Part shown: piece after piece, positions 8,810-58,149 of the stretch
Position numbering within the stretch: position 1 is the first letter of the stretch
Layout of the letters: the number at the start of each line of letters is the position of its first letter
IMG/VR virus record: IMGVR_UViG_3300034351_000038
Location: 1-58,149 of that record
Strand: one strand, 5' to 3'
DNA length: 58,149 bases
Source of the DNA: a virus
Lineage: Duplodnaviria; Caudoviricetes
Position numbers and translations under genes: made by a program
The notes under the pieces: model-generated
Told to the model about the DNA's origin: nothing
Seen by the model: the letters and a program-made list of their open reading frames with translations, nothing else
Databases searched by the model: none

Positions 8810-8819
8810 TGGAGGAACT

Positions 8820-9008: not shown

Positions 9009-9009
9009 T

Positions 9010-12124: not shown

Positions 12125-12137
12125 TTGGAGAAAATAC

Positions 12138-12747: not shown

Positions 12748-12760
12748 GGAGTAATAGAAG

Positions 12761-13294: not shown

Positions 13295-13297
13295 AAA

Positions 13298-14456: not shown

Positions 14457-14468
14457 TAGGGAAAAACA

Positions 14469-14855
14469 ATGCCAAGTTTATATGACATTAAAGTATCATT
14501 TGACACGATGTTACAGGACAACTGGACTGCGACACCGATTGCATTTGACAACACTGATACTTACAAAAAAGGTTCGGTGCCTTGGCTTAACGCTGTGCTT
14601 CTGCCAAGCATCACAACAAATGCCGATCTTAATGGTTTGGAGAGGCATTATGGGATTTATAGAATCTCAGTTTTTGTTCCATTGTTTAGTGGGACAAAAG
14701 ATGCGTATACGTATGCAGAGCAATTGAGAGCACTATTCACTAACCAGCTTTTTGACCAAATAGTATGTTATGCTGCTGAAATTAGAAGAGTTGGGGATAA
14801 TGGAAACGGCTGGTTCATGATGAATGTTTTAGTTAACTTTTGGTCCGATCAATAG
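14469..14855 (+). CDS. tail terminator protein
   Basis: W..TPIAFDN, G.Y.I.VFVP...G..A..LRALF; precedes tail tube. Confidence 0.75.
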   Translation: MPSLYDIKVSFDTMLQDNWTATPIAFDNTDTYKKGSVPWLNAVLLPSITTNADLNGLERHYGIYRISVFVPLFSGTKDAYTYAEQLRALFTNQLFDQIVCYAAEIRRVGDNGNGWFMMNVLVNFWSDQ

Positions 14856-14864
14856 AGGTATAAT

Positions 14865-16052
14865 ATGGCTATTTCAACCACAAATTATGTTCAGTTCTCT
14901 TACATCAAAGAAACTGTCCCTGGGGAAACCCCTGCAACTCCGCAATTTCAGAAGATCCCTGTAAAAAGCGTTGGTCTTTCTGACAATATTACAACTTCCA
15001 CTTCTGAAGTGATTCGCGACGACCGTCAAACTGACGATCTCACTATCGTTGATGCTGAAGTATCTGGTGATTGCAATTATGAGCTTTCGTATAGTCCTTT
15101 CAAACCATTGATTGTGTCTCTCCTTCAGGGTGGCGCGCTTATCTCTGTCAGTGAGGCTGGCAGTGATGTGACGGTGGCTCAAACTGGCAGCACGTATACC
15201 AGTGCCGCTACGATCAATTTTGGTACTTCTGGCTTACTACCTGGCATGAAAGTGCGCGTTGCTGGCTTTACTGATCCGGCCAACAACGGCATCAAGACAG
15301 TTGTCACTGCTACTGCTGGCGTACTTACTGTTGAGGAAACTCTTGCCGATGAGGCAGCTGGAGACTCCGTAACGTTCGATGTGGAATGTGTTCGTAATGG
15401 TGCCGAGACCATGGATACCTACACCTTCAAGAAGAAGATCAATGCCCCTGGAGCAACCAACGCATTCTTCTATTATCGTGGGTGTGCAATCAACAAAATG
15501 TCGTTTGATTTTGCTACTGGTGCGATTCTTACTGGTGCAATGGGTCTTATTGGTCGGACTGCAGAGGCAAGGACTTCTGATCTTACTGGTGAGCAAACGC
15601 CACTTGAGGTTCCTTCCTACAGAATCATGAACTCTGTATCGTCAATCACATCGATAACTGCTACTGGCCTCCCAACCACAGCGGAGTTCTCTAACCTTAA
15701 TCTGACCATCGATAATCAGGCTAAGGCAGCTAAGGCTATTGGTACTCTTGGTGCTGCTGATATTGCCCCACTTAGTTTACAAGTTACTGGTGACATTGAA
15801 CTTTATTTCGAAGACCTTTCGCTTTATAATATCTATAAGGCGGCTACTGAATTTGCGCTCTCGTTTACTTTGGAAGACGCTACTGCCAGTCAAAACATCA
15901 TGGTTATTGATCTTCCAAAATGTAAGTTCAATGAGTTGAGTGAGCCGGTTGATGGCAAAGACGCTTTCTTGATGGAGAGTGGTTCTCTTACCGCACTTCG
16001 TGATGCCACCAACAACTATACTGTACAGTTTAGTTTCTTTGACGCCGTATAG
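14865..16052 (+). CDS. major tail tube protein with internal insertion domain
   Basis: YIKE..GETP, SE.IR.DRQ, VTG.IELYF, IDLP motifs. Confidence 0.85.
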   Translation: MAISTTNYVQFSYIKETVPGETPATPQFQKIPVKSVGLSDNITTSTSEVIRDDRQTDDLTIVDAEVSGDCNYELSYSPFKPLIVSLLQGGALISVSEAGSDVTVAQTGSTYTSAATINFGTSGLLPGMKVRVAGFTDPANNGIKTVVTATAGVLTVEETLADEAAGDSVTFDVECVRNGAETMDTYTFKKKINAPGATNAFFYYRGCAINKMSFDFATGAILTGAMGLIGRTAEARTSDLTGEQTPLEVPSYRIMNSVSSITSITATGLPTTAEFSNLNLTIDNQAKAAKAIGTLGAADIAPLSLQVTGDIELYFEDLSLYNIYKAATEFALSFTLEDATASQNIMVIDLPKCKFNELSEPVDGKDAFLMESGSLTALRDATNNYTVQFSFFDAV

Positions 16053-16053
16053 T

Positions 16054-16139
16054 TTTATAGAATTCTGGTCATTGTGGATACACCGTTTAATATGACACCA
16101 AGCCAGTGGTAACGGGCAGAGTCCACAACTAATTATAAA
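16054..16139 (+). other. structured intergenic RNA (long imperfect hairpin)
   Basis: Nested pairings TTTATA/TATAAA, TTGTGGA/TCCACAA, CCGTT/AACGG, ACCA/TGGT. Confidence 0.5.
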
Positions 16140-16161
16140 GTCATATATTGGAGAAACAAAA

Positions 16162-16545
16162 ATGAGTAAGATTTGTATTACACCTGTCAATGAAGTAGCA
16201 GCAGAAACTGGAGTTTGGGGAAAGTATCGTGGAGTAGATATGCTCATCGCCAGATCTGGAAATCAGAAATTTGAACAGCTTATGCGTGTGTTGACTAAGC
16301 CACACGAAAGGGCTATTGAGAGGGGTAACCTAGATAAAAAGACGAGTGCTGATATTTGGGCTGAAGTGACTGGCAAAACAATCCTGCTTGATTGGAAGAA
16401 TTTTCCAGGTGGTGTTGAGTATTCTAATGAAAATGCCAAGGCACTCATTTTGAACGATAGAGATGCAGCAGAATACATCAAGGAGTTTTCTGAGACTCTT
16501 GAAAACTACCTCTCACAAGAAATTGATGATACGGTGGAAAAGTAA
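16162..16545 (+). CDS. tail assembly chaperone (gpG-like)
   Basis: IAR.GN..F, ILLDW, YS.ENA..L motifs; between tube and tape measure. Confidence 0.85.
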   Translation: MSKICITPVNEVAAETGVWGKYRGVDMLIARSGNQKFEQLMRVLTKPHERAIERGNLDKKTSADIWAEVTGKTILLDWKNFPGGVEYSNENAKALILNDRDAAEYIKEFSETLENYLSQEIDDTVEK

Positions 16546-16856
16546 CAAAACTCTTTAGTTGGTTTTTAGAATATGGCAAAAATATAGAGTTTTTCAAAAA
16601 ATTAGAAAAAGAAGGAAAACCTAGCCCACTAGACGATATACCAAAAGGAGATACAGTAACAGAATGGTATATCGAAATGTTCTACAGACTAAAACACCCA
16701 TGGGACACGGATGTCTCAATCCAAAATCAATTGTTTGTAATTAAAGAGTTTGTATTGATTGGTTCTGCTGACGAATTTCTACAAGTGATGAGATCACTTA
16801 ACAAGACTTACAGGGAGTATCACGAAAGGCACAAAAACAAAGGGCAAAAGCAATGA
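16536..16856 (+). CDS. gpT-like extension reached by -1 frameshift (G-T fusion)
   Basis: GGAAAAG at 16536-16542 just before the stop; -1 frame open ~105 codons (KVTKLFSWFLEYG...KGQKQ) ending in an ATGA overlap with the tape measure. Confidence 0.8.
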   Translation, partial: GKVTKLFSWFLEYGKNIEFFKKLEKEGKPSPLDDIPKGDTVTEWYIEMFYRLKHPWDTDVSIQNQLFVIKEFVLIGSADEFLQVMRSLNKTYREYHERHKNKGQKQ

Positions 16857-19800
16857 GTGAAAACTTTGGTGCTATCGTCAGTATTGATTTTGGTAATAGC
16901 AAGAAAAATACCGACAATTTGGTTGCAGCGCTACATAGCGCTGCGACCGCTATTTTTCAAATAGACAACGCAATAAAGGGGTTTACATCAACCTCTAAAA
17001 CACTGTCGTCTTCAATAAAAGACGTCAATAAGGAATTCAAGGGTATCTTAAGCGTCAATGGGAAATACCTTAGAACATTAGAGAAAAACAATATATTGAA
17101 CAACAAAGTGATCGCGGACAACAATAGTCTCGCGGGCACACTTAGGTCTGTAAATACAGAACTAAATTCTGTAAGTAAAAAGACAGCATCATATGATTCT
17201 AGTAACAGCAAAGTATCAAAGACTATCAGAACTGTTAATGCAGAGAACGAAAAATTGGCCATTAATATGGCTGGCAATGTTGTTGGTGCCTACATAAAGG
17301 CAAACACAGCAGCAAAAAATTATGGCATAAGTTCAAGTAAAATCTCAAGAACGATAAGGGAAGTATCATCTGATAATGCAAAACTTGGTTTAAATATCGC
17401 TGGTAATGTTGTTGGTGCATATACGAAGGCATCAGCAGCAGCAATATCATATGGCACAGCCAATAGTAGAATAGGAAAAACTATCCGCGCTGTTGCTAAA
17501 GAATCCAGGAAGTTAGGTATAACAGTTGCTGGTGATGTCGTTGGCTCATTTAAAAAGGCTGCTGTTGAAGCATATAATAAAAATCGTTCCCTTGAACAAC
17601 TCATAAAAGGATTCAAAAGATTAAATGTAAACATATTAACAAATGTTGCAGCGTTTAATAAATTAAAGAAAGCTGGAAGGATTGAGGGAATGTTTAGGTC
17701 TGCCAAATCATCAATGGGTGACTTTTTTGGAGGCTTAAAGGTTGGCCACGCACTTCTTAGAAGTGTTGCTTTTGGCATCATTGAATTGGGTAGGAGATTT
17801 TTGGCTTGGTCGTTTAATGTGCATAAGATCGCTTCTGATTTTCTAGGATTCAGAAATGCGATACAGGTTGCTACTGGCTCGTTAGAAGGGGCAAACAGTC
17901 AAATGCAATACGCAATAGGTGTTGCAAGAAAATACAAGGTAGATGTAGCAGAGACCACAAGGGCCTATTCAAAGTTTGTTAACGCCGTAACCCTTGCCAA
18001 TATACCATTGAGAGAGGCTAACAAAGAGTTTGCAATACTAGCGCAAGTAGGGCGTGTACTTAATATCTCTACAACCAACATGCGCGGACTATTCCTTGCC
18101 ATTGAACAAATGGCATCGAAGGGTTTTGTTTCACTTGAAGAATTAAGGAGACAGCTTGGTGAGCATTTGCCAGGCGCTGTTTCTATTGCTGCTAAGGCGT
18201 GGGGTAAATATATAAAGAGAACAATCAGTGTTGGCGAGTTCATGAAGATGGTTGAGAATCGCGCTGTTGAAACGACAAAGTTTTTGAAGCCGTTTACCCA
18301 AGAACTCGACAAGATGACAAAACCTCTTCTTGAACAATCTCTGAAGAAATCGTCTGCTGCTTTTGTTGATCTTAACAGCAGTGTTGAATTGCTTGGTGCA
18401 AACATAGGAACTACTTTACAACCAGCATTTACGGCGTTGGCAAATGGTCTCAATTACGTCGTTAAAACGTTTGGTCGCCTTTGGCCAGAGGCAGATCATT
18501 TGAAGGAGGCCTTAGAAGAGCAAATTGAATTGTTTGAATTAGCTGACAATAATACTGGTAAATATTCAGGCGCTATAGAGGAGTTGAAAAAGAAATTATC
18601 TAATTTAAACGAAACAATGGGTGATGTTTCAAAACAAACAGAAAGTTTTGGAGAGAAGATACTAGGTCTATCTATTTCGTTTCTTAGTTTATCGGCAGCA
18701 ACCGGAGGCGGTGGTTTTTCAACTTCTCTTGGCCATATGATAGGTTCTATGATAGGAGTAGAAGATTCATTAGGTTCTGCAACCAAAAAAGCAAAGTCAT
18801 TAGAAGAACAATTGAAATACACCGGCGTAAGTGCATCTGCAACAGCAGAACAAATAGAAGAATATGCATCAGCAATTGATAGTATAAGAAATCTTAATCC
18901 AGTAACTCAGTCTTTTGAAGTGTTGAAATTACAAGAAACAGGTGTTAAGGATGCAATTACTGATCTTGAAAAGACAAAAGCTAAATTCATAGAATTAAAG
19001 AATCAAGCAGAGATAACCTATGAAGAAGGTGGAGCTACAGCTTTAAAATATGCTGCTGCTATTAATTCTATCAACATCCAAATTGACAACCAAACACGGA
19101 AACTAAAGGGGCTTGGTGAACAACAAGATTGGATAAAGAATACATATAGTGGCATTGGTATGTCAAAAGAAGATTTAGACGAAGTAAATTTAATGTCTGA
19201 GAAGTTTGCTGAGATCAATGAAAGGATAGGGTTATTTGGAGAGACATCAACCGTAGCAGCAGTTAAATTTTGGGCATTTAAAAAAGGCCTTAAGATTAGT
19301 GATGGTGAATCTAAGGGGTTTTATAATGCATTGATTAATCGTGCAGCGATGTTCGATGACATAAAACTTGCTGACAAGATAAATAAAAAGATAGACGAGT
19401 TAAAAACAAAACTAAGACAAGGCGGAAACGAAACACAGTATGCTGCTGCAAAAGCTCTAATCTTAGCTGAGAATATTGACAAGAGTAAGCCAAGGGCAAA
19501 TGCATTGGTGAAAGAGTTATTGTCTGTCTCTAAAGCATTGGATAACGAAAAACTTATACAAGAAATGGATGACAGAATGAAGGAGTTTGCAGAAAGCTCA
19601 AAGAATGTTGGTTGGCACATACAAGAAGCAGCAGCTAACGCACTTCTCCTTGCTAACAACATCAAGCTTGGAGAAGATAGAGTTGGTAAAAAAGCTAATT
19701 TGTTTATTGAAGCTGCAAAGGCTAAAGATGAAGAGGAAGCAATAAAGAGGTTGACTGATAAGTTAGAAAGTCTTAATAACAAAACTAGCGAGTATGTAAA

Positions 19801-20782
19801 CAATGCAATAGAAGCAGAGACGAAAACCTGGCTTTTGAAAAATGGTTTTGAAGTTGGTGCAGATGCAGTTGGTAAGATTGCTGAAAAGATAATTAATGTT
19901 ACAAAAGAATTAGACAAGAACGCAATGATGGACGATTTTTCTAAATCTATCAACGGACTCAACGCTAATTTCGGTAGCCTAAGCGAAGAGCAAAACTTTG
20001 CTGCAGCAAAATCTCTTTTATTGGCGCACAACATTGACTTGAGTGATGATGCAGTAAGAGGGATGTCTGGCTCTCTGTCTGGTTTAAATTTAGATCTGGC
20101 TAATTTCTACAGAGGTGCAAATGAGGCTGCAGTCAGGGCTGAGATACTGAGAAGGGGTATAGATCTGAATTCAGAAGGTGCCGGTAAGATGGCAGCAGAA
20201 TATTTAAAGCTTGCCAAGGTTATTGATGACAGACAGACGTTCTTGAGCGCTGCAGAAAGGACGGCTAGATCGATAGAGGGAGCCTTCGCAGATTACTTAT
20301 TTGATCCGTTTGACAAGGGTGTAAAGGGAATGGTCCAGGCTATGAGCGATGCCATGAGAAGGATGGCAGCTGAAATGCTTGCTCACCAAGTTATGAAGAC
20401 GGTGACTAGCTTCATATCTGGTACCAGTTCAGGAGGGTCCGCTGGTGGTGGTGGCGATGCATCTAGTTTATTTGCGGCCATAGCATCTGCTTTTGTATCT
20501 GGTGGTACACCAACCCCAATGGCAACTGGTGGTCCAGTTAGCGCTGGAACCCCATACTGGGTTGGTGAGACAGGTACAAAAGAACTATTTGTTCCAAACC
20601 AAAATGGCGAGATCATAACGAAGAGAAATGTTGAGAAACAAGAAGGTAGAGATTCCAGCGACACATATGTGATTAATATGAACATAACAGGCGTCACAAA
20701 CCCACGCGAGTTCTTGGCTAGTGAAGCACAGTTGACCGGTAGGTTGGTTGAAGCCATAAAGGCGAGAACGAGGAGAAAATAA
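16853..20782 (+). CDS. tail tape measure protein
   Basis: 1309 aa, helical; QMASKG.VS.EELR.QLGE.LPGA tape-measure motif; ATGGPV..G.PYWVGE.G.ELFVP C-terminus. Confidence 0.92.
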   Translation: MSENFGAIVSIDFGNSKKNTDNLVAALHSAATAIFQIDNAIKGFTSTSKTLSSSIKDVNKEFKGILSVNGKYLRTLEKNNILNNKVIADNNSLAGTLRSVNTELNSVSKKTASYDSSNSKVSKTIRTVNAENEKLAINMAGNVVGAYIKANTAAKNYGISSSKISRTIREVSSDNAKLGLNIAGNVVGAYTKASAAAISYGTANSRIGKTIRAVAKESRKLGITVAGDVVGSFKKAAVEAYNKNRSLEQLIKGFKRLNVNILTNVAAFNKLKKAGRIEGMFRSAKSSMGDFFGGLKVGHALLRSVAFGIIELGRRFLAWSFNVHKIASDFLGFRNAIQVATGSLEGANSQMQYAIGVARKYKVDVAETTRAYSKFVNAVTLANIPLREANKEFAILAQVGRVLNISTTNMRGLFLAIEQMASKGFVSLEELRRQLGEHLPGAVSIAAKAWGKYIKRTISVGEFMKMVENRAVETTKFLKPFTQELDKMTKPLLEQSLKKSSAAFVDLNSSVELLGANIGTTLQPAFTALANGLNYVVKTFGRLWPEADHLKEALEEQIELFELADNNTGKYSGAIEELKKKLSNLNETMGDVSKQTESFGEKILGLSISFLSLSAATGGGGFSTSLGHMIGSMIGVEDSLGSATKKAKSLEEQLKYTGVSASATAEQIEEYASAIDSIRNLNPVTQSFEVLKLQETGVKDAITDLEKTKAKFIELKNQAEITYEEGGATALKYAAAINSINIQIDNQTRKLKGLGEQQDWIKNTYSGIGMSKEDLDEVNLMSEKFAEINERIGLFGETSTVAAVKFWAFKKGLKISDGESKGFYNALINRAAMFDDIKLADKINKKIDELKTKLRQGGNETQYAAAKALILAENIDKSKPRANALVKELLSVSKALDNEKLIQEMDDRMKEFAESSKNVGWHIQEAAANALLLANNIKLGEDRVGKKANLFIEAAKAKDEEEAIKRLTDKLESLNNKTSEYVNNAIEAETKTWLLKNGFEVGADAVGKIAEKIINVTKELDKNAMMDDFSKSINGLNANFGSLSEEQNFAAAKSLLLAHNIDLSDDAVRGMSGSLSGLNLDLANFYRGANEAAVRAEILRRGIDLNSEGAGKMAAEYLKLAKVIDDRQTFLSAAERTARSIEGAFADYLFDPFDKGVKGMVQAMSDAMRRMAAEMLAHQVMKTVTSFISGTSSGGSAGGGGDASSLFAAIASAFVSGGTPTPMATGGPVSAGTPYWVGETGTKELFVPNQNGEIITKRNVEKQEGRDSSDTYVINMNITGVTNPREFLASEAQLTGRLVEAIKARTRRK
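17216..17570 (+). repeat. three 129-bp (43-aa) repeats in the tape measure N-terminus
   Basis: AG(N/D)VVG recurring at a 129-bp period (17270, 17399, 17528). Confidence 0.75.
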
Positions 20783-41359: not shown

Positions 41360-41436
41360 TGGTCGGGACGGGAGGATTCGAACCTCCGACAACCAACTCC
41401 CAAGGCTGGGGCTCTACCAGGCTGAGCTACGTCCCG
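41360..41436 (-). tRNA. tRNA-Pro (anticodon TGG)
   Basis: Reverse complement CGGGACG-TAGCTCAGCCTGGTAGAGC-CCCAGC-CTTGGGA-GTTGG...GGAGG-TTCGAAT-CCTCC-CGTCCCG-A-CCA forms a full cloverleaf with encoded CCA. Confidence 0.95.
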
Positions 41437-45772: not shown

Positions 45773-46261
45773 ATGACAACTATCATAGCTGATGCAAAAA
45801 GCAAGATCATGATATCAGACACAAGCGCAAATGGTGGATATGGAACGTTTGCAAGCAAGAAGGTTTTTAAGGACGACAATGTTGCTGTGGGAATAGCAGG
45901 TGATGCAATTATTGGTAAACGACTTGCAGAATTTATTTTATCTTCTGATTATCTTGATGAAGAAGATCTATTAAATCTAAAAGAGTCAGCAGCTTTTGAC
46001 GAAGATAAAGGTAACGATTCAGAGGCCTTGATTCTAACAAGTGATGGAAGAATATTCTTCATGGAAAATGAATATTTTGAAAAGATTGAGGTGTTTGATG
46101 ATTATTTCGCCATTGGCAGCGGAGCAAAATTCGCCAGGGGAGCAATGCATGCTGCGTCATTGTATAATGACGACCCTGTAGCTGTTATCAAGACGGCTCT
46201 TCAGGTTGCAGCTAAACTAGACCCTTTCACTGGCTCTGAGTTCAAAATTTTTCATTTTTAG
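45773..46261 (+). CDS. HslV/proteasome-beta-like Ntn peptidase
   Basis: MTTI N-terminal Thr, SD, KVF, GIAG, AIGSG..FA.GAM, D.FTG. Confidence 0.85.
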   Translation: MTTIIADAKSKIMISDTSANGGYGTFASKKVFKDDNVAVGIAGDAIIGKRLAEFILSSDYLDEEDLLNLKESAAFDEDKGNDSEALILTSDGRIFFMENEYFEKIEVFDDYFAIGSGAKFARGAMHAASLYNDDPVAVIKTALQVAAKLDPFTGSEFKIFHF

Positions 46262-47861: not shown

Positions 47862-48302
47862 ATGAATATTAAATGGTATAAAAGATTTCTTGATTTAGCT
47901 CTGCATATCTCCGAATGGAGCAAAGATCCATCATCGAAGGTTGGTGCGGTTATCACCGAAGGTAACCGTATCGTGTCGCTTGGTTACAATGGGTTTGCTG
48001 CTGGTGTTGAAGACAACGATCATAGACTTAATAACAGGGATATAAAACTCAACCTGACAATCCACGCGGAAGAGAATGCCATGATCTTTGCCAAACAAGA
48101 TATCTCAGGTTGCACCATCTATCTGACTCACCCGCCTTGTCCTAGATGTGCATCAAAACTGATCCAGGAGGGTATCAGACTCATTGTCTACCGTGAACCA
48201 ACTGAAGATTTTCTTTCTAGGTGGGAAAAGGACATTAATTTATCCAAAAAGATTTGTGAGGAAGCTGGCGTAACAATGCTATGTTATCATTTAACGAAAT
48301 AA
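47862..48302 (+). CDS. dCMP deaminase
   Basis: WSKDPS.KVGAVI, GYNG, HAEENA, PC..C. Confidence 0.93.
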   Translation: MNIKWYKRFLDLALHISEWSKDPSSKVGAVITEGNRIVSLGYNGFAAGVEDNDHRLNNRDIKLNLTIHAEENAMIFAKQDISGCTIYLTHPPCPRCASKLIQEGIRLIVYREPTEDFLSRWEKDINLSKKICEEAGVTMLCYHLTK

Positions 48303-49098: not shown

Positions 49099-49367
49099 TG
49101 GAGTATACTTCCATGTTGATGTTTGACGATTTGTTGAAAATGACAGATCAAGAAAGACTTGATTATCTCGATCAAGAAGCAGAAAAGATTTTTGCGAGAG
49201 CGAATCCAAACAATGTGCTTAAGCTCAGGGCTATACATGCACGTCTGTCGCAGAAGAGAAAGAAAATCAAGAACAGATACGTGGCAGCACAGATGATGTA
49301 TCATGATATGCTAATCGCACTCGAATACCTTAACGACGCGCTAAAGGGAACCGTAAAACCAAAGTAG
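49095..49367 (+). CDS. DUF3135-like protein
   Basis: FD.L......L...AE.I...A.....KLR...RL......N pattern. Confidence 0.55.
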   Translation: MMEYTSMLMFDDLLKMTDQERLDYLDQEAEKIFARANPNNVLKLRAIHARLSQKRKKIKNRYVAAQMMYHDMLIALEYLNDALKGTVKPK

Positions 49368-49410
49368 TAACCTATGCTTACTCGTTTGTTGATTTTGAGA
49401 GGATTAATCG

Positions 49411-50205
49411 ATGAAACAATATCTCGAACTAATGAGTTATGTCTTAAGAAATGGAGATGAAAAGAGTGATCGCACAGGTACAGGTACCCGTAGTGTCTTC
49501 GGTTATCAGATGCGTTTCTGTCTTGAAGAAGGATTTCCACTAGTGACAACCAAGAAGATACATCTGCGCTCGATCATCCACGAGCTTCTCTGGTTTCTCA
49601 AGGGTGACACAAACGTGAGATACCTGCAGGAGAACGGTGTCAGGATCTGGAATGAGTGGGCTGATGAAAACGGCGATCTAGGGCCCGTCTACGGTCATCA
49701 GTGGCGTTCCTGGCCTACCCCGGACGGTGGTCATATCGACCAGATCAGCCAGCTGGTGGAACAGATTCGCCGAAATCCAGTCTCGCGGAGGCTCATCGTA
49801 TCCGCCTGGAACCCCGCTGAGGTGGATCAGATGGCATTGCCCCCTTGTCACTGCCTGTTCCAGTTCTACGTGAACGAGGGGCGCCTCTCCTGCCAGCTCT
49901 ACCAGCGCAGCGCTGATGTCTTCCTGGGAGTGCCGTTCAATATTGCCTCATATGCTTTGTTGACGATGATGGTGGCTCAGGTATGTGAGCTTGAAGTTGG
50001 TGATTTCGTGCATACCCTCGGCGACGCCCATTTGTACAAAAACCATATTGGCCAGGCACTGCTGCAGCTGAGCAGAAACCCACGAACTAAGCCTATAATG
50101 CAGATTAACCCTGATGTCAAGAATATTTTTGATTTCAAATTCGATGATTTTCAACTGAGTGAATATGATCCCTACCCCCGCATCTCTGCGCCAGTGTCTG
50201 TGTGA
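49411..50205 (+). CDS. thyA: thymidylate synthase
   Basis: 264 aa; DRTGTGT, ELLWFL.G, LGPVYG.QWR, PPCH, YQRSAD.FLG.PFN; closely resembles bacterial ThyA. Confidence 0.97.
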
Positions 50206-50216
50206 TGGTGGTGATC

Positions 50217-50256
50217 TGGGGATGGCCACCTAGTGTTGATTAGGTGGTTTTCCCCA
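50217..50256 (+). terminator. hairpin/terminator after thyA
   Basis: TGGGGA..CCACCTA-loop-TAGGTGG..TCCCCA. Confidence 0.5.
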
Positions 50257-50336
50257 CAATTTCATATAGTTACGTCGCGCATACAGTGGTGACCTCTACT
50301 TCCTGCCTATATCTCCCCTCCTTAAAAATATAAACT

Positions 50337-50365
50337 TTGCAAAATAATATAGGTTAATCTATAAT
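50337..50365 (+). promoter_or_regulatory. strong sigma70-like promoter for the accessory region
   Basis: TTGCAA-17-TATAAT with AT-rich upstream element. Confidence 0.8.
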
Positions 50366-50404
50366 ATTAGTTACAGCACAATATTTCGTCTTAGGAGTCA
50401 AATC

Positions 50405-50548
50405 ATGAATCACCTTCGCGGGTGGAATGCCTTCGTAACTATTCATCATTTTGCCACTGGATGCTATATCATAGCTGACTGCAATACACTACTGAGTGAC
50501 AAATTATATGCTTGGTATCTTCGTCTTGAAGACGACAAGACTTTTTAG
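50405..50548 (+). CDS. 47-aa hypothetical protein, not in ORF track
   Basis: AGGAG SD; manual translation MNHLRGWNAF... Confidence 0.55.
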   Translation: MNHLRGWNAFVTIHHFATGCYIIADCNTLLSDKLYAWYLRLEDDKTF

Positions 50549-50559
50549 GAGACTAATTC

Positions 50560-51108
50560 ATGTGTGACGACAAGGTCATTCTTTACGATTCACCAGAAGC
50601 AGCACAGTATCGCACAAATATCTCTGGGTGGGTAAATAGCAGAAACCAGTTTTTCGGCGAAAACGAACATGCTGCTCGGTATTCTGGAGCCACTCACACC
50701 AAATGTGCAAAGTGTGGATCCATTATGCCAATCAGGGGCCTGATAATTTGTAACGATTGCTACCACGCAAAGAGAGTTGAGGAATACAATGCTTTCCCCG
50801 CTGTGGAGTGGGATGGTAAAACGCCGTTGTGTTCGTTGACGACTGGCGATTTTATCATGAACGAAGGTCAACTAGAAGAGGCACTGGAAGACTACGTGGT
50901 GTTTGGTGACCTTATGATTGTTATTTGTGAACCAAATTACTATCCAAAGATAGATGATGATTATTTCGAGTCCCCCATCACAGATGAAGAGTTTGACATT
51001 CAATTCATCCCACAAGAGTTGGGTGAGAAGATAGATGAACTCAATGCGCTAATCGACACACTACCCCCTGCATCCTGGTCACCAGGTAAGACGAGGCCTA
51101 TATTATGA
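50560..51108 (+). CDS. conserved phage protein with Zn-binding Cys pairs
   Basis: YDS.EAA...SGWV...F.G..E..ARY.G.TH..C..C...C..C. Confidence 0.7.
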   Translation: MCDDKVILYDSPEAAQYRTNISGWVNSRNQFFGENEHAARYSGATHTKCAKCGSIMPIRGLIICNDCYHAKRVEEYNAFPAVEWDGKTPLCSLTTGDFIMNEGQLEEALEDYVVFGDLMIVICEPNYYPKIDDDYFESPITDEEFDIQFIPQELGEKIDELNALIDTLPPASWSPGKTRPIL

Positions 51109-51422
51109 ACAAATCCGAAACTACAAAAGGCAATGTGATTTTCTCCAAAGATCGCGAGAGGCTCGGCATAGAGTTAGTTAATGTTTACAACAAAGAAAAA
51201 ATTGATATATCTGGATCAACAATTCGTCGATTCGATGCGTCTTCATGGCCAGAAGGTAGTGATAAACCACCGCATTTTCTTTGTATTTTTTCTAGTCCTG
51301 GAGTTACGGAGTATATACCATTCTCGTCCATAGGGTTTCGATACAAAGGAGTAATGATCACAAGCGATTATGCTGAAAAATTAATCGAAAGAGAGGCCCG
51401 TAATGTTCCAAATGAGAACTAA
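51105..51422 (+). CDS. hypothetical protein
   Basis: GAGG SD; ATGA overlap. Confidence 0.6.
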   Translation: MNKSETTKGNVIFSKDRERLGIELVNVYNKEKIDISGSTIRRFDASSWPEGSDKPPHFLCIFSSPGVTEYIPFSSIGFRYKGVMITSDYAEKLIEREARNVPNEN

Positions 51423-51674
51423 ATACGTGTCAGTTGAAAAAGTGCGCGCGTTCGTTAATGGCGTAAGCATCATATCTGGCCTCATCGCGGGGGTCTTTGC
51501 AGTTGTCTGGGGCTTCTGGTATCTGGCGCAGCAATTCTAGCCTAGTGGGAGGATATCATGGAAAAAGTAAAACTCATTATTCATATTGGCATTGTTGTCA
51601 CTATATTTGCTTGGGTTGGTTGTATTTATTACTTTTTTAATTAGATGTGGTTTCTTCTTGGGAGGAATGAAATA

Positions 51675-51905
51675 GTGAAAAAGAATACAGAGCTGTCGAA
51701 AGGAGATACAGTGAGAATGGATCCCGATGGATACGCGCTCATCAATAATGATGAGTCTACATCACCAATTCCCATGTGGATCCCAGGTATTGGAGAAGTC
51801 ATAAGGTGTGAAGAAGGTCAAACCTGGGTAGAGTGGGATAATGGCCTAGAGACCGTTCATCAATCGACACGCACATATTTGATGAGAGTAGAAGATGAGC
51901 AATAG
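51675..51905 (+). CDS. SH3-like (MIB/HERC2- or DUF4314-like) paralog 1, one domain, divergent
   Basis: LSKGD.V....G.V....VEWDNG....L.RV. Confidence 0.7.
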   Translation: MKKNTELSKGDTVRMDPDGYALINNDESTSPIPMWIPGIGEVIRCEEGQTWVEWDNGLETVHQSTRTYLMRVEDEQ

Positions 51906-52314
51906 AGCTGTTGTTAGAGGCGATAGAGTTATTCTGTCTGAGCTTACTGAGTGGGATTATTCTTACGCAAATCCACTTGGTGTTGTGGGGACCGTTGATT
52001 ATATATACCCAGTTGATCAAGATAACTCTGTATGGATTGAGGTTTTGTGGGATAACGGAGAGATAAATCAATACGACAGAGATGAATACGATCTAATAAA
52101 GGTGCAAGAAATCGAAGACAATCGACAATTGTCAAAAGGAGACAGAGTGACGTTGTTAGCTAATGCTAAGTGGCAAAAATTTACTCAAAACAAACTGGGC
52201 ATAGTGGGGTCTGTTGTTCATATTGGGAAATACGTAATCTTGATACATTGGGACAACGGATTTGAAAATTTTAGTAGCACCAAAGACAATGGTATTGTAA
52301 AGGTGATAAAATGA
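51895..52314 (+). CDS. SH3-like paralog 2, two domains
   Basis: GDRV.L..W..N.LG..G.V..WDNG twice. Confidence 0.8.
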   Translation: MSNRAVVRGDRVILSELTEWDYSYANPLGVVGTVDYIYPVDQDNSVWIEVLWDNGEINQYDRDEYDLIKVQEIEDNRQLSKGDRVTLLANAKWQKFTQNKLGIVGSVVHIGKYVILIHWDNGFENFSSTKDNGIVKVIK

Positions 52315-52763
52315 AAAACAAAGATTTGATTAAAGGCGATAGGGTAGTGTTATCAGATGATACAAGATGGAATACAAAACGTGAATCTAATCCTTTGGGG
52401 GTAATGGGAACAGTAATTGATCCAGATGAAAGTTATTGTATGAATCTTTTTTCAGGTCATGTGTTCGTTAGGTGGGACAATGGGGTTGAGAACTCATACG
52501 CCCCATATGAAGATGACTTAGTGAGGGTAAGAAAAACGATCAATAGTGATTTAATGCGTGGTGATAGAGTAATGTTGTTAGCTAATACGAAATGGAACAC
52601 AAACTATGAATCTAATCCTTTGGGTGTAAAAGGAACAGTAATTGATCCAGATGAAAGTGATTATGGTATTGTTTCTTCAAAAAATGTGGTAGTTAAGTGG
52701 GATAATGGGTTTGAGAACACATACAAAGAATATGAATATGACTTGGTGAGGGTAGAAAAATGA
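52311..52763 (+). CDS. SH3-like paralog 3, two domains
   Basis: Same motif twice; near-identical DNA at a 225-bp offset. Confidence 0.8.
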   Translation: MKNKDLIKGDRVVLSDDTRWNTKRESNPLGVMGTVIDPDESYCMNLFSGHVFVRWDNGVENSYAPYEDDLVRVRKTINSDLMRGDRVMLLANTKWNTNYESNPLGVKGTVIDPDESDYGIVSSKNVVVKWDNGFENTYKEYEYDLVRVEK

Positions 52764-52981
52764 TCAATAGTGATTTAGTTCGTGGTGATAGAGTGGTTCT
52801 TTCCATAAATACACGTTGGAATTATGATTATCCATCCAATCCAGCTGGGATTAAAGGAAGAGTCACTAACCCTCGATTCGTAGATTACAGTGGTTATCTG
52901 TGTGTTGAGGTTCGGTGGGATAACGGGGAATTTAATACTTACAAACTAGATGATAATGATTTGATCAAGGTGGCACCATGA
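52760..52981 (+). CDS. SH3-like paralog 4, one domain
   Basis: GDRVVL..W..NPAG.KG.V..VRWDNG..N.Y...DLIKV. Confidence 0.8.
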   Translation: MINSDLVRGDRVVLSINTRWNYDYPSNPAGIKGRVTNPRFVDYSGYLCVEVRWDNGEFNTYKLDDNDLIKVAP

Positions 52982-53382
52982 GCAACCGTGATTTGATTAA
53001 AGACGATAGAGTCATGTTGTCGCATGACAATGTATGGATGATTGGAAATGACAACCCCTTAGGTGTGGTTGGGACTGTTTCTTATGACATATCCATTGGT
53101 TGGATTAGTGTTTATTGGGATAATGGGACACTTAACACCTATTATGAAGGTGATAGTGATCTGGTGAAAGTAAGAGAACTCGAATTCAACGAGGAACTTG
53201 AAGAGGGCGACAGAGTAATGTTGTTGGCTACCACTAAGAATGCTATTGGCCCCACAAACCCTTTGGGTGTTAAAGGAACAGCCACTTACCTTGGGAAACA
53301 TACATTGTCGGTAAGATGGGATACTGGAGAAGAAAACGTTTATTATGGAGAGGACAATGAATTAGTGAAGGTAGAATCATGA
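52978..53382 (+). CDS. SH3-like paralog 5, two domains
   Basis: Motif twice. Confidence 0.8.
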   Translation: MSNRDLIKDDRVMLSHDNVWMIGNDNPLGVVGTVSYDISIGWISVYWDNGTLNTYYEGDSDLVKVRELEFNEELEEGDRVMLLATTKNAIGPTNPLGVKGTATYLGKHTLSVRWDTGEENVYYGEDNELVKVES

Positions 53383-53798
53383 GTAATTCAACCATATCAA
53401 ACGACGATCTAGTCATGTTGTTGGCAGACCATAAATTTGATAGGGTCGAAGACAACATATTAGGAGAGCCAGGATGGGTTACTACTGCTACACCAGATAT
53501 GTTATGGGTAGAATGGGACACCGGAGAAGAAACCGTTTATAACCTTGAAGACCATGACTTGGTAAAGGTGGTTAGACTTAGAAGCAATGAAGACCTATCG
53601 AAAGGAGATAGAGTCATGCTATTGGCTACTACTGATTGGAGTGTTTGTTATGAACACCCACTTGGAGTTATTGGAGAAGTCACTAGTATTGACAGCTATA
53701 CGATGAGAGTCTACTGGGACAACGGAGTTGAGAACGTTTATTTTGTACAAGATAACGATCTGATAAAGGTTGTTAAGGAGTGGGGTAATGCCTATTAG
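53379..53798 (+). CDS. SH3-like paralog 6, two domains
   Basis: Motif twice. Confidence 0.8.
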   Translation: MSNSTISNDDLVMLLADHKFDRVEDNILGEPGWVTTATPDMLWVEWDTGEETVYNLEDHDLVKVVRLRSNEDLSKGDRVMLLATTDWSVCYEHPLGVIGEVTSIDSYTMRVYWDNGVENVYFVQDNDLIKVVKEWGNAY

Positions 53799-54060
53799 TG
53801 AAATCAAAAATATGAATGAGGTCATACGCATTAGTGATATAGAAGGGCGTGTTGTTGGTATTCTGAAGGAACACCCAATATACGGATGCTCTGTGTCTTA
53901 TGTTACTCAGAGATTAAAAATACTTGAGCAGGATACAAGACGTCTATTAAACAAATTGATTACACGCGGGTTTGTATTCCGACAAATCTCCTTTTTCTTT
54001 GAATCGACAACGATGTATAAACTGACAGATCTTGGGGTGTATGAATCACGAAAGTGGTAG
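53788..54060 (+). CDS. winged-helix DNA-binding protein (putative)
   Basis: SV..V...L.I.....R.LNKL..RGFV.R........Y.LT.LG. Confidence 0.6.
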   Translation: MPISEIKNMNEVIRISDIEGRVVGILKEHPIYGCSVSYVTQRLKILEQDTRRLLNKLITRGFVFRQISFFFESTTMYKLTDLGVYESRKW

Positions 54061-54398
54061 GGGTTATGAAGATGATGAAAGACTCAACTCAGTTTGTTAT
54101 AGCCATGGCTCTTTTGGTTGGATGGATAGTGTTCACAGTCTTCCTCGTGTCTGACTCTATTTAACTGGGACAAATCATGTTAGAAAATTTGTTGGTTGTT
54201 GCATCTTCGTGCGTAGCAGAAGGTTATGAGTCTATGATAGAAGGTGCATTGATTTTCTTTGTTGGGGTTTTGTAGGCTACTTATTGTTCTGGTTTGGTTT
54301 TGGTGATTGGTGGGATTTTTAGAGTTCTGCTACTCATTGTGTGCTCCATTTAAATTGAAGAGGTGAATTATGAAAACTATGACTAAACGTGAAAAAAG

Positions 54399-54668
54399 AT
54401 GCTTAACACTATTTTTAGTTATGAAAGAAAGGAAAACGATATCTTTTTGTTCTTAAACACTACTGGTGAGGTAATTCAGCACGACGTTGATGATCTTTAT
54501 GCGCTGTTAGGATTTTACAACACTGATAAGGAACAACTTTTCATTGCCGGTGATGACAATGGTGGAGAAACATTCGGGTTCTGTGTGCCATTGGACGATG
54601 TCAGTTTCCAGTGGAACGATGAGGAAATCTCTCTCAAGGAAGCGCGGAAGATCATCAAGAAAGGTTGA
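54399..54668 (+). CDS. hypothetical protein (true start possibly 54370 across an A6 run)
   Basis: ORF track; the only clear SD lies upstream of out-of-frame ATG 54370. Confidence 0.55.
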   Translation: MLNTIFSYERKENDIFLFLNTTGEVIQHDVDDLYALLGFYNTDKEQLFIAGDDNGGETFGFCVPLDDVSFQWNDEEISLKEARKIIKKG

Positions 54669-54729
54669 CTATACTAAGAGCACTAACAGCTACGTGGGGT
54701 GGGTAACACACCCTATAAGAGGTTGCAAC

Positions 54730-55116
54730 ATGAGCAATATAAATTTGGAAAAATTCAGCAGTGTGATGCTGTTGGCTTCCACTAGGTGGGATGTTGACCA
54801 TACTAACCCATTAGGAGTATTAGGTACTATTATTGGCAAGGGCCTTGGTTTAATTTGTGTCAAATGGGACAATCAAAACAGAAACGATTATATGGGTGAT
54901 GATAGTGATTTGGTGAAGGTAGTTGAAGTCAAGGATAATGGAAATTTATGTAAGGATGATAAGGTGATGATGTTGGCTAATATTGGTTATGGATATCCAC
55001 TTGGAGTCATTGGAAATGTTGTTGATGTTAAAGAAAACGAAATGCGAGTAGAATGGGATAAGGGTTTTGTCAGTAGTTACTTAAAAAAACATAACAACCT
55101 TGTGAGGGTGGCATAA
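54730..55116 (+). CDS. SH3-like paralog 7, two domains
   Basis: GAGG SD; motif twice. Confidence 0.8.
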   Translation: MSNINLEKFSSVMLLASTRWDVDHTNPLGVLGTIIGKGLGLICVKWDNQNRNDYMGDDSDLVKVVEVKDNGNLCKDDKVMMLANIGYGYPLGVIGNVVDVKENEMRVEWDKGFVSSYLKKHNNLVRVA

Positions 55117-55508
55117 TGTACAACAAACATCTTGAATTAGACGATAGAGTAATGCTATTGGCTACCACTAGGTGGGATACAGATGATCATAACAACCCAT
55201 TGGGGGTAGTTGGAACTGTCACTGGCGTTGACTCTGGTTGGGTTTCCGTTAGCTGGGATAGCAAAAACAATAACAGCTATAGGGTAAGAGATGATGATCT
55301 GATTAAGTTGGCAAAAAACAGGAGTCATGAAAGGTTACATAATGGCGATAGAGTAATGATAGTGGCTACACCTGGAAGTCAAAGACAATTGGGGGTGGTT
55401 GGGGCAGTTGCTAATATCAACAAACGTTCTGTAGCGATACGCTGGGACAATTATGTTGATAGCTACTACGTAAATTACTCCAAGCTGGTGGTGGTGGATG
55501 ATGAGTAA
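55116..55508 (+). CDS. SH3-like paralog 8, two domains
   Basis: Motif twice. Confidence 0.8.
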   Translation: MYNKHLELDDRVMLLATTRWDTDDHNNPLGVVGTVTGVDSGWVSVSWDSKNNNSYRVRDDDLIKLAKNRSHERLHNGDRVMIVATPGSQRQLGVVGAVANINKRSVAIRWDNYVDSYYVNYSKLVVVDDE

Positions 55509-55896
55509 CAAAGATCTCGAAAAAGGTGATAGGGTAATGCTGCTGCAGTCTACTAAGTGGCTTATGAATATTCGTAATCCACTTGGGGTAATTGGAACTG
55601 TTAGAGGCGAAGACGATGAAGGTTGGATTTACGTCCGTTGGGATAACAGAGAAAAGAATAATTACGAGGGGATACATAGTGATTTGGTTGAGGTAATAGA
55701 GATTAAATCAAATGAAGATTTGTGGAAGGGCGATCGGGTGATGATGTTATCTTCTCTTAGAAGCTATTATCAATTGGGAATAGTTGGAACGGTTGACGAG
55801 ATTAAGAAAGATACAGTGCTAGTAAAATGGGATAATGGGGTTAACTATAGCTACATCAAAGAGCACAACAACCTGGTAATTGTGGCTGTTGAGTGA
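55498..55896 (+). CDS. SH3-like paralog 9, two domains
   Basis: Motif twice. Confidence 0.8.
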   Translation: MMSNKDLEKGDRVMLLQSTKWLMNIRNPLGVIGTVRGEDDEGWIYVRWDNREKNNYEGIHSDLVEVIEIKSNEDLWKGDRVMMLSSLRSYYQLGIVGTVDEIKKDTVLVKWDNGVNYSYIKEHNNLVIVAVE

Positions 55897-56125
55897 ATGT
55901 CATGACAGATGTACAGGTTAAGAGGTGATAAGATATGAGTTCAGAGGATCTGTTTATAGCCGTATTCTTTTTAGCAGTAATGTTATTGGGTTTATACGTA
56001 AGTGGCTTGGTGGTATGGGCGTTCACTTTGGCGCTCAATTGACGCACCCTCCCCGCGTCGTAAGTTAACCTAATGAATGAATGTCAAGTGCAAATATTCC
56101 ACACAGAACCACTTAAGAGGTATAT

Positions 56126-56467
56126 ATGAGTCACATAGCTCCAGGAACAAAATGCGTAATCGTAGGGTGCGTTCGTGCTAACGAAGGTATGGTCGTAACA
56201 GTCGTCTCTCAGGCAAACGACTGGTCTGAATGTGCTACCTGCGGGCATGATATCGGGTACATGATCGATAAGACCTTGCCAGAGTATGGTAGCAACGTAA
56301 TCAATGGATCGCGCTTGCAGCCTCTCAATGGCGACGAGGAGAGGGACAGTAGCGAGACAGACAGGGAGAGGGATAAGCCAGTGTCTATCAGCCTCTCGGA
56401 CATCATCAAACAAATGAACCCCGCTGATTTTGAGCACGAAGAGACAGGAGAAGAAGTCTATGGATAA
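56126..56467 (+). CDS. hypothetical protein (KOW/SH3-like N-terminus, CxxC, acidic tail)
   Basis: GAGG SD; PG....IV....N.G.VV.V...RL.PL. Confidence 0.6.
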   Translation: MSHIAPGTKCVIVGCVRANEGMVVTVVSQANDWSECATCGHDIGYMIDKTLPEYGSNVINGSRLQPLNGDEERDSSETDRERDKPVSISLSDIIKQMNPADFEHEETGEEVYG

Positions 56468-56660
56468 CAAGCGCAATATGAACTACGAGCAAGCCAAAGC
56501 GGCGGCAAAAGCACTTGAGCAGGAACTGGAATCTAAAAAGTGGCATGTCGTAGTAAAAGAAGAAAAGGATAAACGTGTGATTACCGTGCAGGGTAGGTCA
56601 TATTTATCATACGGGGGGAACCTTCAGCAGAGTTTCCCGTATATCTGGGAGGTGGTTTAG
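56460..56660 (+). CDS. small protein, tandem paralog A
   Basis: AGGAG SD; MDNK..M.YE.A..AA.ALEQ..ES..WHVVV...VQG.SY..YGG.LQ.SFPYI. Confidence 0.7.
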   Translation: MDNKRNMNYEQAKAAAKALEQELESKKWHVVVKEEKDKRVITVQGRSYLSYGGNLQQSFPYIWEVV

Positions 56661-56661
56661 T

Positions 56662-56850
56662 ATGGATAACAAGCACAGTATGACCTATGAAGAAGCCAGG
56701 TTTGCAGCACGTGCACTCGAACAGGATATGGAGTCTAGGGGGTGGCACGTCGTGGTGGGGGATAATAGGGAACGTCGCGAGATCTTTGTCCAGGGTAGCT
56801 CATATTCGCCATACGGTGGGTCACTGCAACGTAGCTTCCCGTACATCTGA
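56662..56850 (+). CDS. small protein, tandem paralog B
   Basis: GGAGG SD; same pattern as paralog A. Confidence 0.7.
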   Translation: MDNKHSMTYEEARFAARALEQDMESRGWHVVVGDNRERREIFVQGSSYSPYGGSLQRSFPYI

Positions 56851-56865
56851 GGAGAGTATTTTAGA

Positions 56866-57069
56866 ATGTCAGATATACATTATTTACTTATGTTTTGTGC
56901 TGTGCTCTCAGTGGTGTGTGCTGCTATCGTGACACTAGTTCACCCGCTTGAGGAAATTTCCAAGTGGAAAGGAGGGTGTGCGATATTGGTTGTTTTGTTC
57001 GAATGTATGTCGGTGGCCATTGCTCTGGTTGTGATTTATATCGTCTACTTGGTATCGACTGGAGGGTGA
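56866..57069 (+). CDS. small membrane protein
   Basis: GAGGAG SD; 2 TM. Confidence 0.6.
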   Translation: MSDIHYLLMFCAVLSVVCAAIVTLVHPLEEISKWKGGCAILVVLFECMSVAIALVVIYIVYLVSTGG

Positions 57070-57073
57070 ATAC

Positions 57074-57337
57074 ATGTCATATCTAGTTTCAACCCCTGTG
57101 TTTGGTTTTGGGATCCTACTAATTTCATGTGGCATTTGGGGATCCCTGAGTTATAGTAAGAATTGGGACACCACAAAGCGACATAAGAGAATCGCCCTCA
57201 TATTCCTATTAGTGGAAGGTGGGTTACTCACAGCGTTCTCGTATCCCTTCTTCTCAGATGCTTTTTTTAATGGAATGTTGGTAGGCCAGATATATGTGGT
57301 TTTGTGGTCTTCATATAAGGAAAGAGTGAATCAATGA
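57074..57337 (+). CDS. small membrane protein
   Basis: GGAGG SD; 3 hydrophobic segments. Confidence 0.6.
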   Translation: MSYLVSTPVFGFGILLISCGIWGSLSYSKNWDTTKRHKRIALIFLLVEGGLLTAFSYPFFSDAFFNGMLVGQIYVVLWSSYKERVNQ

Positions 57338-57513
57338 TTTTAATGTACACATTAGTGTTTTTTATATCAACCCTCACAGAGCTATTCCAACCGATAGCTT
57401 CAGTTGTCCTAGAAAACCTCTCAGCGGAGTGTTACATCTGGCTGGGGATTTCAATCGCAGTAGCCATCGCCCAGGGGTGTGTGGTTTGTTTTTATAACGT
57501 AATTGAAGGATGA
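57334..57513 (+). CDS. small membrane protein, not in ORF track
   Basis: Manual translation MILMYTLVFF...; ATGA overlap. Confidence 0.45.
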   Translation: MILMYTLVFFISTLTELFQPIASVVLENLSAECYIWLGISIAVAIAQGCVVCFYNVIEG

Positions 57514-57727
57514 AATTATGAGAAATATTATGAAAGAAATCATGAAAGATTTTATGTCCGCATTAGTATTTTCTATACTGGTTTTCATGGGGATCGCACA
57601 GATGGTCCTTACCCTTGCGTTTGCTGGAGCAAACGTGTCTGAAGATCCATTTTGGTTGGTGTCTTTTGTTGCGATAGCATTCACGCAAATTTGTGTACTT
57701 GGTTTATATTTATATTGTAGGAAATAG
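57503..57727 (+). CDS. small membrane protein (start uncertain)
   Basis: 2 TM; several in-frame ATGs in a 12-nt periodic stretch. Confidence 0.55.
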   Translation: MKDEIMRNIMKEIMKDFMSALVFSILVFMGIAQMVLTLAFAGANVSEDPFWLVSFVAIAFTQICVLGLYLYCRK

Positions 57728-58065
57728 TTTTTAGTTGTTGGGTAATTATAGTGACAATGGTAAAATGACTGTAGGTTTGGGGGAAAGGTGGTTCATTAGT
57801 AAATGATAAAAGGAATTTATGACGGCATAAAAAAGATCGATGAATGCCAACAGTATAGGTACGGCGTTGGTAGGTTACCTGTAACCCAGCGGACAAAATT
57901 CAACTAGATGAACATGTTATCAGTTAGAATTAAATGTCAAAAATTGAGGTACCCCCCCTCGCGGGGCCCTGGGGGAGAAAAAGCGACCGAGCGAATATCA
58001 GGTAGCTTGATAAAGACCCTTTTTGAGTGAAACAGCGATTTCGAGACAGAATGTGAATACTGTAA

Positions 58066-58095
58066 GTATATGATATATAATATATATATATATAT
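58066..58095. repeat. (TA)n-rich tract
   Basis: TATATGATATATAATATATATATATATT. Confidence 0.75.
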
Positions 58096-58149
58096 TCTTA
58101 CCTATACACTACACTAGCCATACATATGCCATTGGCATTCCTGACTATT

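Follow-up and report, generated by a model that had tools for sequence, protein, structure and literature searches.

We analysed the whole of one IMG/VR virus record (IMGVR_UViG_3300034351_000038), a linear sequence of 58149 bases that CheckV rates as 76% complete and that is referred to below as the window, and describe in it an array of nine paralogous genes built from a single small repeat unit. The genes, named g1 to g9 in their order along the plus strand, are all intact and form two clusters, g1-g6 at 51675-53798 and g7-g9 at 54730-55896. An initial annotation had placed nine genes in two clusters here, and all nine frames proved to be open on the plus strand at exactly those places. Splitting of the encoded proteins gave seven two-unit genes and two one-unit genes (g1 and g4), for a total of 16 units, again as annotated. 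The proteins are 73-150 amino acids (aa) long and consist of units only, with RING, HECT and ZZ domains absent from all nine in Pfam searches, and every one of them is acidic (isoelectric point, pI, 4.2-6.05). Together the clusters occupy 3291 nucleotides (nt), or 5.7% of the 58149-base record; the earlier estimate of about 6% of the genome thus holds for the record only, since the record is rated 76% complete.

Neighboring genes within the clusters overlap at all seven junctions, which agrees with the overlapping start and stop codons noted initially. Four of these are ATGA overlaps (g2/g3, g3/g4, g4/g5 and g5/g6), one is an overlap of 1 nt (g7/g8) and the remaining two are of 11 nt (g1/g2 and g8/g9). 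At five of the seven junctions the codons for the conserved (K/R)V of the last strand (AAGGTG, GAGGGT) double as the Shine-Dalgarno-like stretch of the gene that follows. The GTG start of g1 at 51675 has GGGAGG 9 nt upstream, whereas an alternative ATG at 51645 has no such site. Since the genes are chained by overlapping stop and start codons, we predict that the nine are probably made together from one shared transcript.

The unit measures 62-76 residues in its 16 copies, each of which was recognized by a hidden Markov model (HMM) of the unit with an E value between 6e-21 and 8e-32; the same HMM detected no 17th copy in a six-frame translation of the window. Fifteen of the units share 26-61% pairwise identity, while that of g1 is an outlier, being 19-34% identical to the others and matching an HMM built without it at E 8.8e-7. 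Alignment of the 16 units bore out the proposal of a conserved scaffold with variable loops: the core is constant across copies, while loop 1, between strands 1 and 2 (12-19 residues), and loop 2, between strands 2 and 3 (11-19 residues), differ in length and sequence in every copy. A third variable segment is fixed at 6 residues and varies in sequence alone, so that the description of three loops differing in both length and sequence applies to the first two. In SH3-type domains the loops between strands 1-2 and 2-3 are those at the RT and n-Src positions, and it is these that as a rule border the ligand site.

With respect to family assignment, the Pfam family MIB_HERC2 (PF06701) matched eight of the nine proteins at E <= 0.3, the best being g3 (31.4 bits, E 1.8e-7), and none of the nine reached its gathering cut-off of 33.5 bits. 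DUF4314 (PF14192) matched seven of the nine, with only g9 (38.3 bits) above the cut-off of 27 bits; g2, g3, g4, g5, g6 and g8 scored 12.4-23.3 bits, and g1 and g7 were not among the matches listed. By Pfam thresholds, the unit is not a member of either family, except for g9 in DUF4314. NCBIfam returned only weak matches far below threshold (TraA_Ti, YajC). Compared with PDB sequences, the unit profile matched MIB1 (E 0.003) and HECTD1 (E 0.011), aligned on GTV...V.WDNG..N.Y, and compared with 1.84 billion representative proteins it gave 431 matches at E <= 0.001. The latter include, below the window's own proteins, library proteins P0008, P0009 and P0012 (E 6.4e-21, 1.2e-20 and 2.6e-15, respectively), which are multi-repeat MIB_HERC2 proteins by Pfam (327, 433 and 244 bits). 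Of the 74 listed matches that exceed 150 aa in length, MIB_HERC2 is present in 26 and DUF4314 in 4 at E <= 1e-4.

The array unit and the MIB_HERC2 domains of MIB1 (in its MZM module, Mib-Herc2-ZZ-Mib-Herc2), HECTD1 and HERC2 have in common the pattern G.RV...W...G..GTV...V.WDNG..N.Y...DL as well as a five-stranded SH3-like barrel that often occurs in tandem. They differ in that the phage products stand alone, without a RING, HECT or ZZ partner domain, and in the first loop, which contains NPLGV in array units versus a QDGG-like segment in MIB_HERC2 proteins such as P0008 and P0009. DUF4314 resembles the unit in being a prokaryotic and viral domain of ~70 aa with a GTV motif; it differs in that eight of the nine array proteins fall below its cut-off, and it is a family without known function. 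Taken together, the profile comparisons indicate a genuine, though distant, relationship of the unit to both MIB_HERC2 and DUF4314. The initial description of the module as MIB/HERC2- or DUF4314-like therefore names the closest named families, but the Pfam cut-offs are passed by g9 with DUF4314 only.

Structure prediction agreed with the proposed SH3-type small barrel. AlphaFold2, supplied with the 16-unit alignment, modeled the second unit of g3 (g3b) as a short N-terminal helical turn followed by five strands (predicted local distance difference test, pLDDT, 82.8), and we regard the unit as a predicted five-stranded SH3-like beta-barrel. The first two Foldseek matches of this model in the PDB were structures of the HECTD1 Mib-herc2 domain (3dkm, E 3.5e-3, and 2dk3, E 8.2e-3; template-modeling score 0.57-0.60), followed by Spt5 KOW, prophage protein YorP and MIB1, with the E values of these matches ranging from 3.5e-3 to 2e-2. 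VIA-align assigned the HECTD1 structures Z scores of 6.5-6.8, tied with other small barrels; since unrelated barrels are tied, structure alone identifies an SH3-like barrel and no more. The best matches among predicted viral structures (BFVD) were uncharacterized phage proteins, several of which bear the name DUF4314, along with segments of rIIB-annotated proteins. Feature scores of 0.85-0.86 in the Protein Atlas serve as leads only, and its structure matches, which include MIB2 and MIB_HERC2 proteins, lie below its bar.

For a two-unit protein, we modeled g5 with AlphaFold from a seven-row alignment (pLDDT 86.2; predicted template-modeling score 0.82), and in this model the protein is one rigid body of two packed barrels. 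Its best match over both barrels was the tandem Tudor domain of BAHCC1 (8ye8; Foldseek E 6.3e-5, VIA Z 8.1), in an alignment of 117 residues with a root-mean-square deviation of 4.1 and a Z score about one unit above those of the single-barrel matches. The tandem Tudor domains of BAHCC1, UHRF1, 53BP1 and SETDB1 likewise consist of two small barrels packed rigidly, as the two-unit array proteins are predicted to be, and Mib-repeat modules offer a further parallel. Sequence identity to the tandem Tudor domains is only 13-14% (14% for 8ye8), however, and the likeness may reflect common packing alone.

Seven other phage records contained the module at E <= 0.01 (phiA009, G001, LPML1, SarahDanielle, Vibrio 1.121.O, Asfd_1 and Bitten), each with one or two units compared with 16 in the window. 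In the Felix-O1-like phages (Hafnia phage SarahDanielle and Listeria phage LPML1) the unit lies within a protein of 475-531 aa (E 8e-18 to 1.5e-9), annotated rIIB in the Hafnia phage and hypothetical in the Listeria phage, where gene order is the same. These proteins resemble the array in carrying the same unit in one or two copies; they differ from it in that the unit is part of a larger protein, and is neither free nor expanded. In one Vibrio phage record the module had already been annotated as InterPro Mib-herc2 by the depositors.

Searches for closer relatives, from which records of the window's own genome or ones very near to it may be excluded, returned little. No relative of g3 was found in a word-indexed protein search or in a scan of GTDB genomes, and IMG/VR scans with g3, g9, the 182-aa protein encoded directly upstream of the array, P0068, P0035 and alignment A4 gave nothing beyond one distant single-copy locus (L009). 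Scanning of metagenomes with P0003 and P0007, two variant proteins described below, gave nothing beyond one weak and unrelated locus (L011). The unit was also absent from the 20.5-kb fragment of a distant relative identified through its primase (G002, 32% identity). Full-text literature searches, with supplements outside their scope, found no paper on DUF4314 and none on MIB/HERC2-like domains in phages, and broader searches on phage paralog arrays or accordions found nothing relevant. Since the seven other carriers possess only one or two units, the 16-unit array is a lineage-specific tandem expansion of an otherwise sparse module, and judging from the divergence of its copies an old one. The domain family is already known and single phage copies are already annotated; what is unusual here is the size of the expansion.

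Protein identity among all units is 19-61%, a divergence at which silent sites are saturated, and the median terminal branch of the unit tree corresponds to 0.72 changes per site. Even the youngest pair, the two units of g3 (g3a and g3b), is only 61% identical in protein and 76% identical in DNA over 225 nt, the best DNA pair in the array. A phylogeny of the 16 units, as the initial annotation had suggested, was informative at one point: a fair split (83/94) separates a group with g1, g7b, g8b and g9b from the other 12 units. None of the 13 inner branches is well supported, and g1 and g6a form long branches. That the second units of g7-g9, all with short loops, group together is consistent with two-unit genes having been duplicated as wholes in the second cluster. 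Within the first cluster, the joint between g3a and g3b (52530-52570) is 93% identical over 41 nt to that between g3 and g4 (52754-52794). Among their differences is the base that makes ACG at one joint the ATG of the ATGA overlap at the other; therefore, one substitution separates one two-unit gene from two chained one-unit genes.

We found the array in 12 metagenome runs from three studies, two of which possibly represent one data set; none of the 12 is an RNA run. Contigs of four runs (X8, X9, X11 and X12) contained no altered joints or indels, a comparison based on assembled contigs, from which rare variants are dropped. Run X8 contained a second strain with 25 variant sites, 14 silent and 11 amino-acid-changing, which were concentrated in three short patches. 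In the g5b patch, four of nine changes alter loop-1 residues (84, 89, 91 and 92) and five are silent, while seven of eight changes in the g6a/g6b patch are silent. Three further near variants came from the protein library: P0003 from a contig of 1924 bases, P0007 from one of 9027 bases and P0155 from one of 4823 bases. P0003, a variant of g6, carries its six substitutions exclusively between residues 17 and 27, in loop 1 of the first unit, and the 112 residues that follow are identical. P0155 is g7 with the change N72D, which also occurs in run X8. P0007 consists of one unit of 76 aa, of which 60 residues match g3a exactly and the tail that follows is closer to g3b; it may be a one-unit g3 hybrid, as from unequal recombination between the g3 units, or an ancestral form. 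These few variants suggest that the core is constrained, that loop 1 can change and that unit number changes now and then.

The initial annotation had likened the locus to a gene accordion. Gene accordions such as the amplification of K3L in poxviruses are recent, near-identical tandem amplifications of a virus host-interaction gene. The array resembles the K3L case in consisting of tandem paralogs in a virus genome, but its copies are old (19-61% identical) and were stable across the four runs, so that the comparison in this form is not supported. On the other hand, a one-unit g3 hybrid is present in a near relative, so copy number does change. As annotated, we found neither a reverse transcriptase nor an invertase: searches of the record with RVT_1, Resolvase and Phage_integrase gave no match, while control genomes were matched. 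With reverse transcriptase, resolvase and tyrosine recombinase all absent from the record, the diversity is likely to have arisen by duplication and recombination.

The remainder of the record is that of a tailed phage, with structural genes in its first part, a replication block on the minus strand and a second plus-strand arm (Table 1). The array lies in this non-structural arm, downstream of the genes for primase, dCMP deaminase and thymidylate synthase. A megablast search of the GenBank phage collection with the array and with positions 1-20000 gave no DNA-level match, and the major head protein is at most 56% identical to that of a cultured phage (Serratia phage Eta). Separately, the guanine-cytosine skew of 0.30-0.35 across 52001-56000 is the maximum of the record and coincides with the array.

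A promoter had been annotated at 50337, upstream of the array. A sigma-70-like candidate is indeed present there and is the best match in 49300-58149, but the 22 promoter-like sites in this interval do not exceed the number in shuffled sequences (23.4 +/- 5.1), and it is separated from the array by a terminator-like hairpin (50523-50541). A weaker candidate directly precedes g1. For the cysteine-rich protein encoded directly upstream of the array, a pattern scan of IMG/VR found no relative. The 931-base spacer between the clusters holds a small MarR-like winged-helix open reading frame (ORF), which could encode a local regulator, together with short unassigned ORFs. Just downstream of the array on the plus strand, adjacent genes of 76 and 62 aa (56430-56660 and 56662-56850) are paralogs of each other with common N- and C-terminal motifs; they represent a second, unrelated tandem duplication, and neither has a Pfam match. 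They are followed on the same strand by four head-to-tail ORFs encoding small hydrophobic, membrane-protein-like products of 67, 87, 59 and 74 aa (56866-57727).

Table 1. Genes and other features of the window, with the two Felix-O1-like homologs in the last rows.
Feature	Position	Strand	Remarks
g1	51675-51905	+	one divergent unit, 76 aa from GTG 51675
g2	51895-52314	+	two units, 139 aa; DUF4314 23.3 bits (below threshold); phrog_9469 E 9e-19
g3	52311-52763	+	two units, 150 aa; most similar unit pair; MIB_HERC2 31.4 bits vs cut-off 33.5
g4	52760-52981	+	one unit, 73 aa
g5	52978-53382	+	two units, 134 aa
g6	53379-53798	+	two units, 139 aa
g7	54730-55116	+	two units, 128 aa
g8	55116-55508	+	two units, 130 aa
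g9	55498-55896	+	two units, 132 aa; alone above the Pfam DUF4314 cut-off
Candidate sigma-70-like promoter, TTGCAA-17-TATAAT	50337-50365	+	10/12
Weaker candidate promoter, TTCATA-16-TATATT	51580-51607	+	9/12; directly before g1
182-aa cysteine-rich protein	50560-51108	+	directly upstream of the array; phrog_11053 E 2.3e-39, 'unknown function'
MarR-like winged-helix ORF	53770-54060	+	start uncertain; MarR_2 E 5.2e-5, 23.8 bits vs cut-off 27
Terminase, portal, major head protein, tape measure, tail protein	up to ~26.5 kb	+	tailed phage
DNA polymerase, helicase, ribonucleotide reductase block		minus	
Second plus-strand arm	from 41.8 kb	+	primase, HslV-like peptidase, dCMP deaminase, thymidylate synthase, then many small genes
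tRNA-Pro(TGG)	41360-41436	minus	single tRNA
HslV-like peptidase	45773-46261	+	
dCMP deaminase	47862-48302	+	
Thymidylate synthase (ThyA)	49411-50205	+	
531-aa Felix-O1-like protein	2794-4389 of L015		two units near the N-terminus; follows rIIA
475-aa Felix-O1-like protein	2734-4161 of L016		one unit near the N-terminus; follows rIIA

Based on these findings, we hypothesized that the copies are small acidic adaptors with targets that differ from one to the next, most likely peptides or protein surfaces of the host, so that the locus as a whole would constitute a panel of binders; we give this reading about an even chance (probability ~0.5). The proteins would be made together during the non-structural phase of infection, with the barrel core held constant and loops 1 and 2 differing copy by copy. 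Each copy would then bind a different peptide or protein surface, and this binding would serve host takeover or counter-defence. Peptide binding has a precedent among the distant relatives, in that MIB1, by way of its MZM and REP domains, binds the short N-box and C-box peptides found in Notch ligands (PMC11887331).

Several observations weigh against a panel of host binders. None of the phage members has a known ligand, partner or phenotype, and the three PHROGs families into which eight of the nine proteins fall (9469, 11307 and 18715) are all labeled 'unknown function'. PADLOC matched none of the nine proteins to a defence system. In VIA-align the barrel matches KOW, Tudor, PsaE, NdhS and further small barrels equally well (Z 6-7), and many of these bind nucleic acid or RNA polymerase. 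In four of the other phages (phiA009, Vibrio 1.121.O, Asfd_1 and Bitten) the module is a free, small, single-copy gene near primase, helicase or polymerase genes, and single copies beside replication genes would also fit a role in replication or transcription. The loop-focused changes come from one contig of low depth (2.5x) and one protein, encoded on the 1924-base contig and possibly cut or chimeric at its end. Finally, the record is 76% complete.

Some of these same observations would be accounted for if the barrels acted on nucleic acid or on the transcription or replication machinery, through KOW-, Tudor- or CarD-like docking that tunes or redirects host and phage polymerases. Among the structural neighbors with comparable Z scores are Spt5 KOW, RapA, the Tudor domain of UvrD/PcrA in complex with the RNA polymerase lobe, CarD, NusG and the SH3 domains of RecD2 and Pif1. 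Sub-threshold Pfam matches to SH3_12 (Xrn1) occur in five of the nine proteins and SH3_13 (RecD-like) matches occur among their relatives; the single copies noted above adjoin primase, helicase and DNA polymerase genes, and the array itself follows primase, dCMP deaminase and ThyA. We nevertheless consider this, the main rival, the less probable explanation, as a pI of 4.2-6.05 for all nine proteins is unusual for direct nucleic-acid binders, the profiles favor MIB_HERC2 and DUF4314 over KOW or Tudor families, and one conserved polymerase target hardly explains sixteen differently looped copies. A dedicated anti-defence repertoire, in which each paralog neutralizes or decoys a different host immune protein or allele and in which loops and copy number track those defences, is speculative and in our view doubtful. 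The array does sit in an accessory arm of small genes, its products are acidic, changes focused on a loop distinguish near-identical strains, a near relative possesses the one-unit g3 hybrid, and in a Felix-O1-like phage the module is inside a protein annotated rIIB. The rII genes of T4 counter Rex exclusion. However, the rIIB link consists of depositors' names only, no functional datum exists for any member, PADLOC found no defence family among the nine proteins, the copies are ancient instead of recently amplified, and copy number did not vary in four runs. Equally tentative is a broader proposal, namely a germline repertoire of two-barrel binders whose loops 1 and 2 would be diversified separately in each copy and swapped among strains by recombination, each neutralizing a different host immune or housekeeping protein, such that counter-defence or takeover loci would have been built on the ancestor of the eukaryotic MIB/HERC2 substrate-recognition domain.

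It is improbable that the copies are relics of neutral duplication without present function, or that only one or two of them matter. In favor of this reading, g1 and g6a form long branches and one or two units suffice in other phages, but pseudogenization, which the initial annotation had named as evidence that would speak against its own binder reading, was not seen: no frame is broken among the nine genes. Moreover, core positions are kept among copies that are only 19-61% identical, overlapping junctions with ribosome-binding stretches are retained at all seven joints, and outside loop 1 silent changes dominate in the X8 strain variant (seven of eight in g6a/g6b). Least probable is a dedicated diversification machine, either a diversity-generating retroelement or an invertase shufflon. 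Although the differences seen in two near relatives fall together within a short stretch of a loop, the 76%-complete record lacks a match to RVT_1, resolvase or phage integrase where controls were matched, and the array contains no long near-identical template repeat. The changes in P0003 (D>N, H>Y, F>W, V>D, D>E and I>L), together with those in X8 (C>A, C>G, G>A and C>T), are not restricted to adenine positions.

If the proteins are generic adaptors in replication or transcription, the array would be an ordinary accessory gene family. As it stands, a catalogued domain without known phage function is present here in sixteen differently looped copies, compared with one or two in seven other phages, and the locus thus offers a natural panel for asking what the barrel binds. 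Should they prove to bind different host proteins, the locus would reveal how phages can extend their reach by varying the loops on one unchanging scaffold, and the origin of the MIB/HERC2 substrate-recognition domain would gain a context in a prokaryotic virus.

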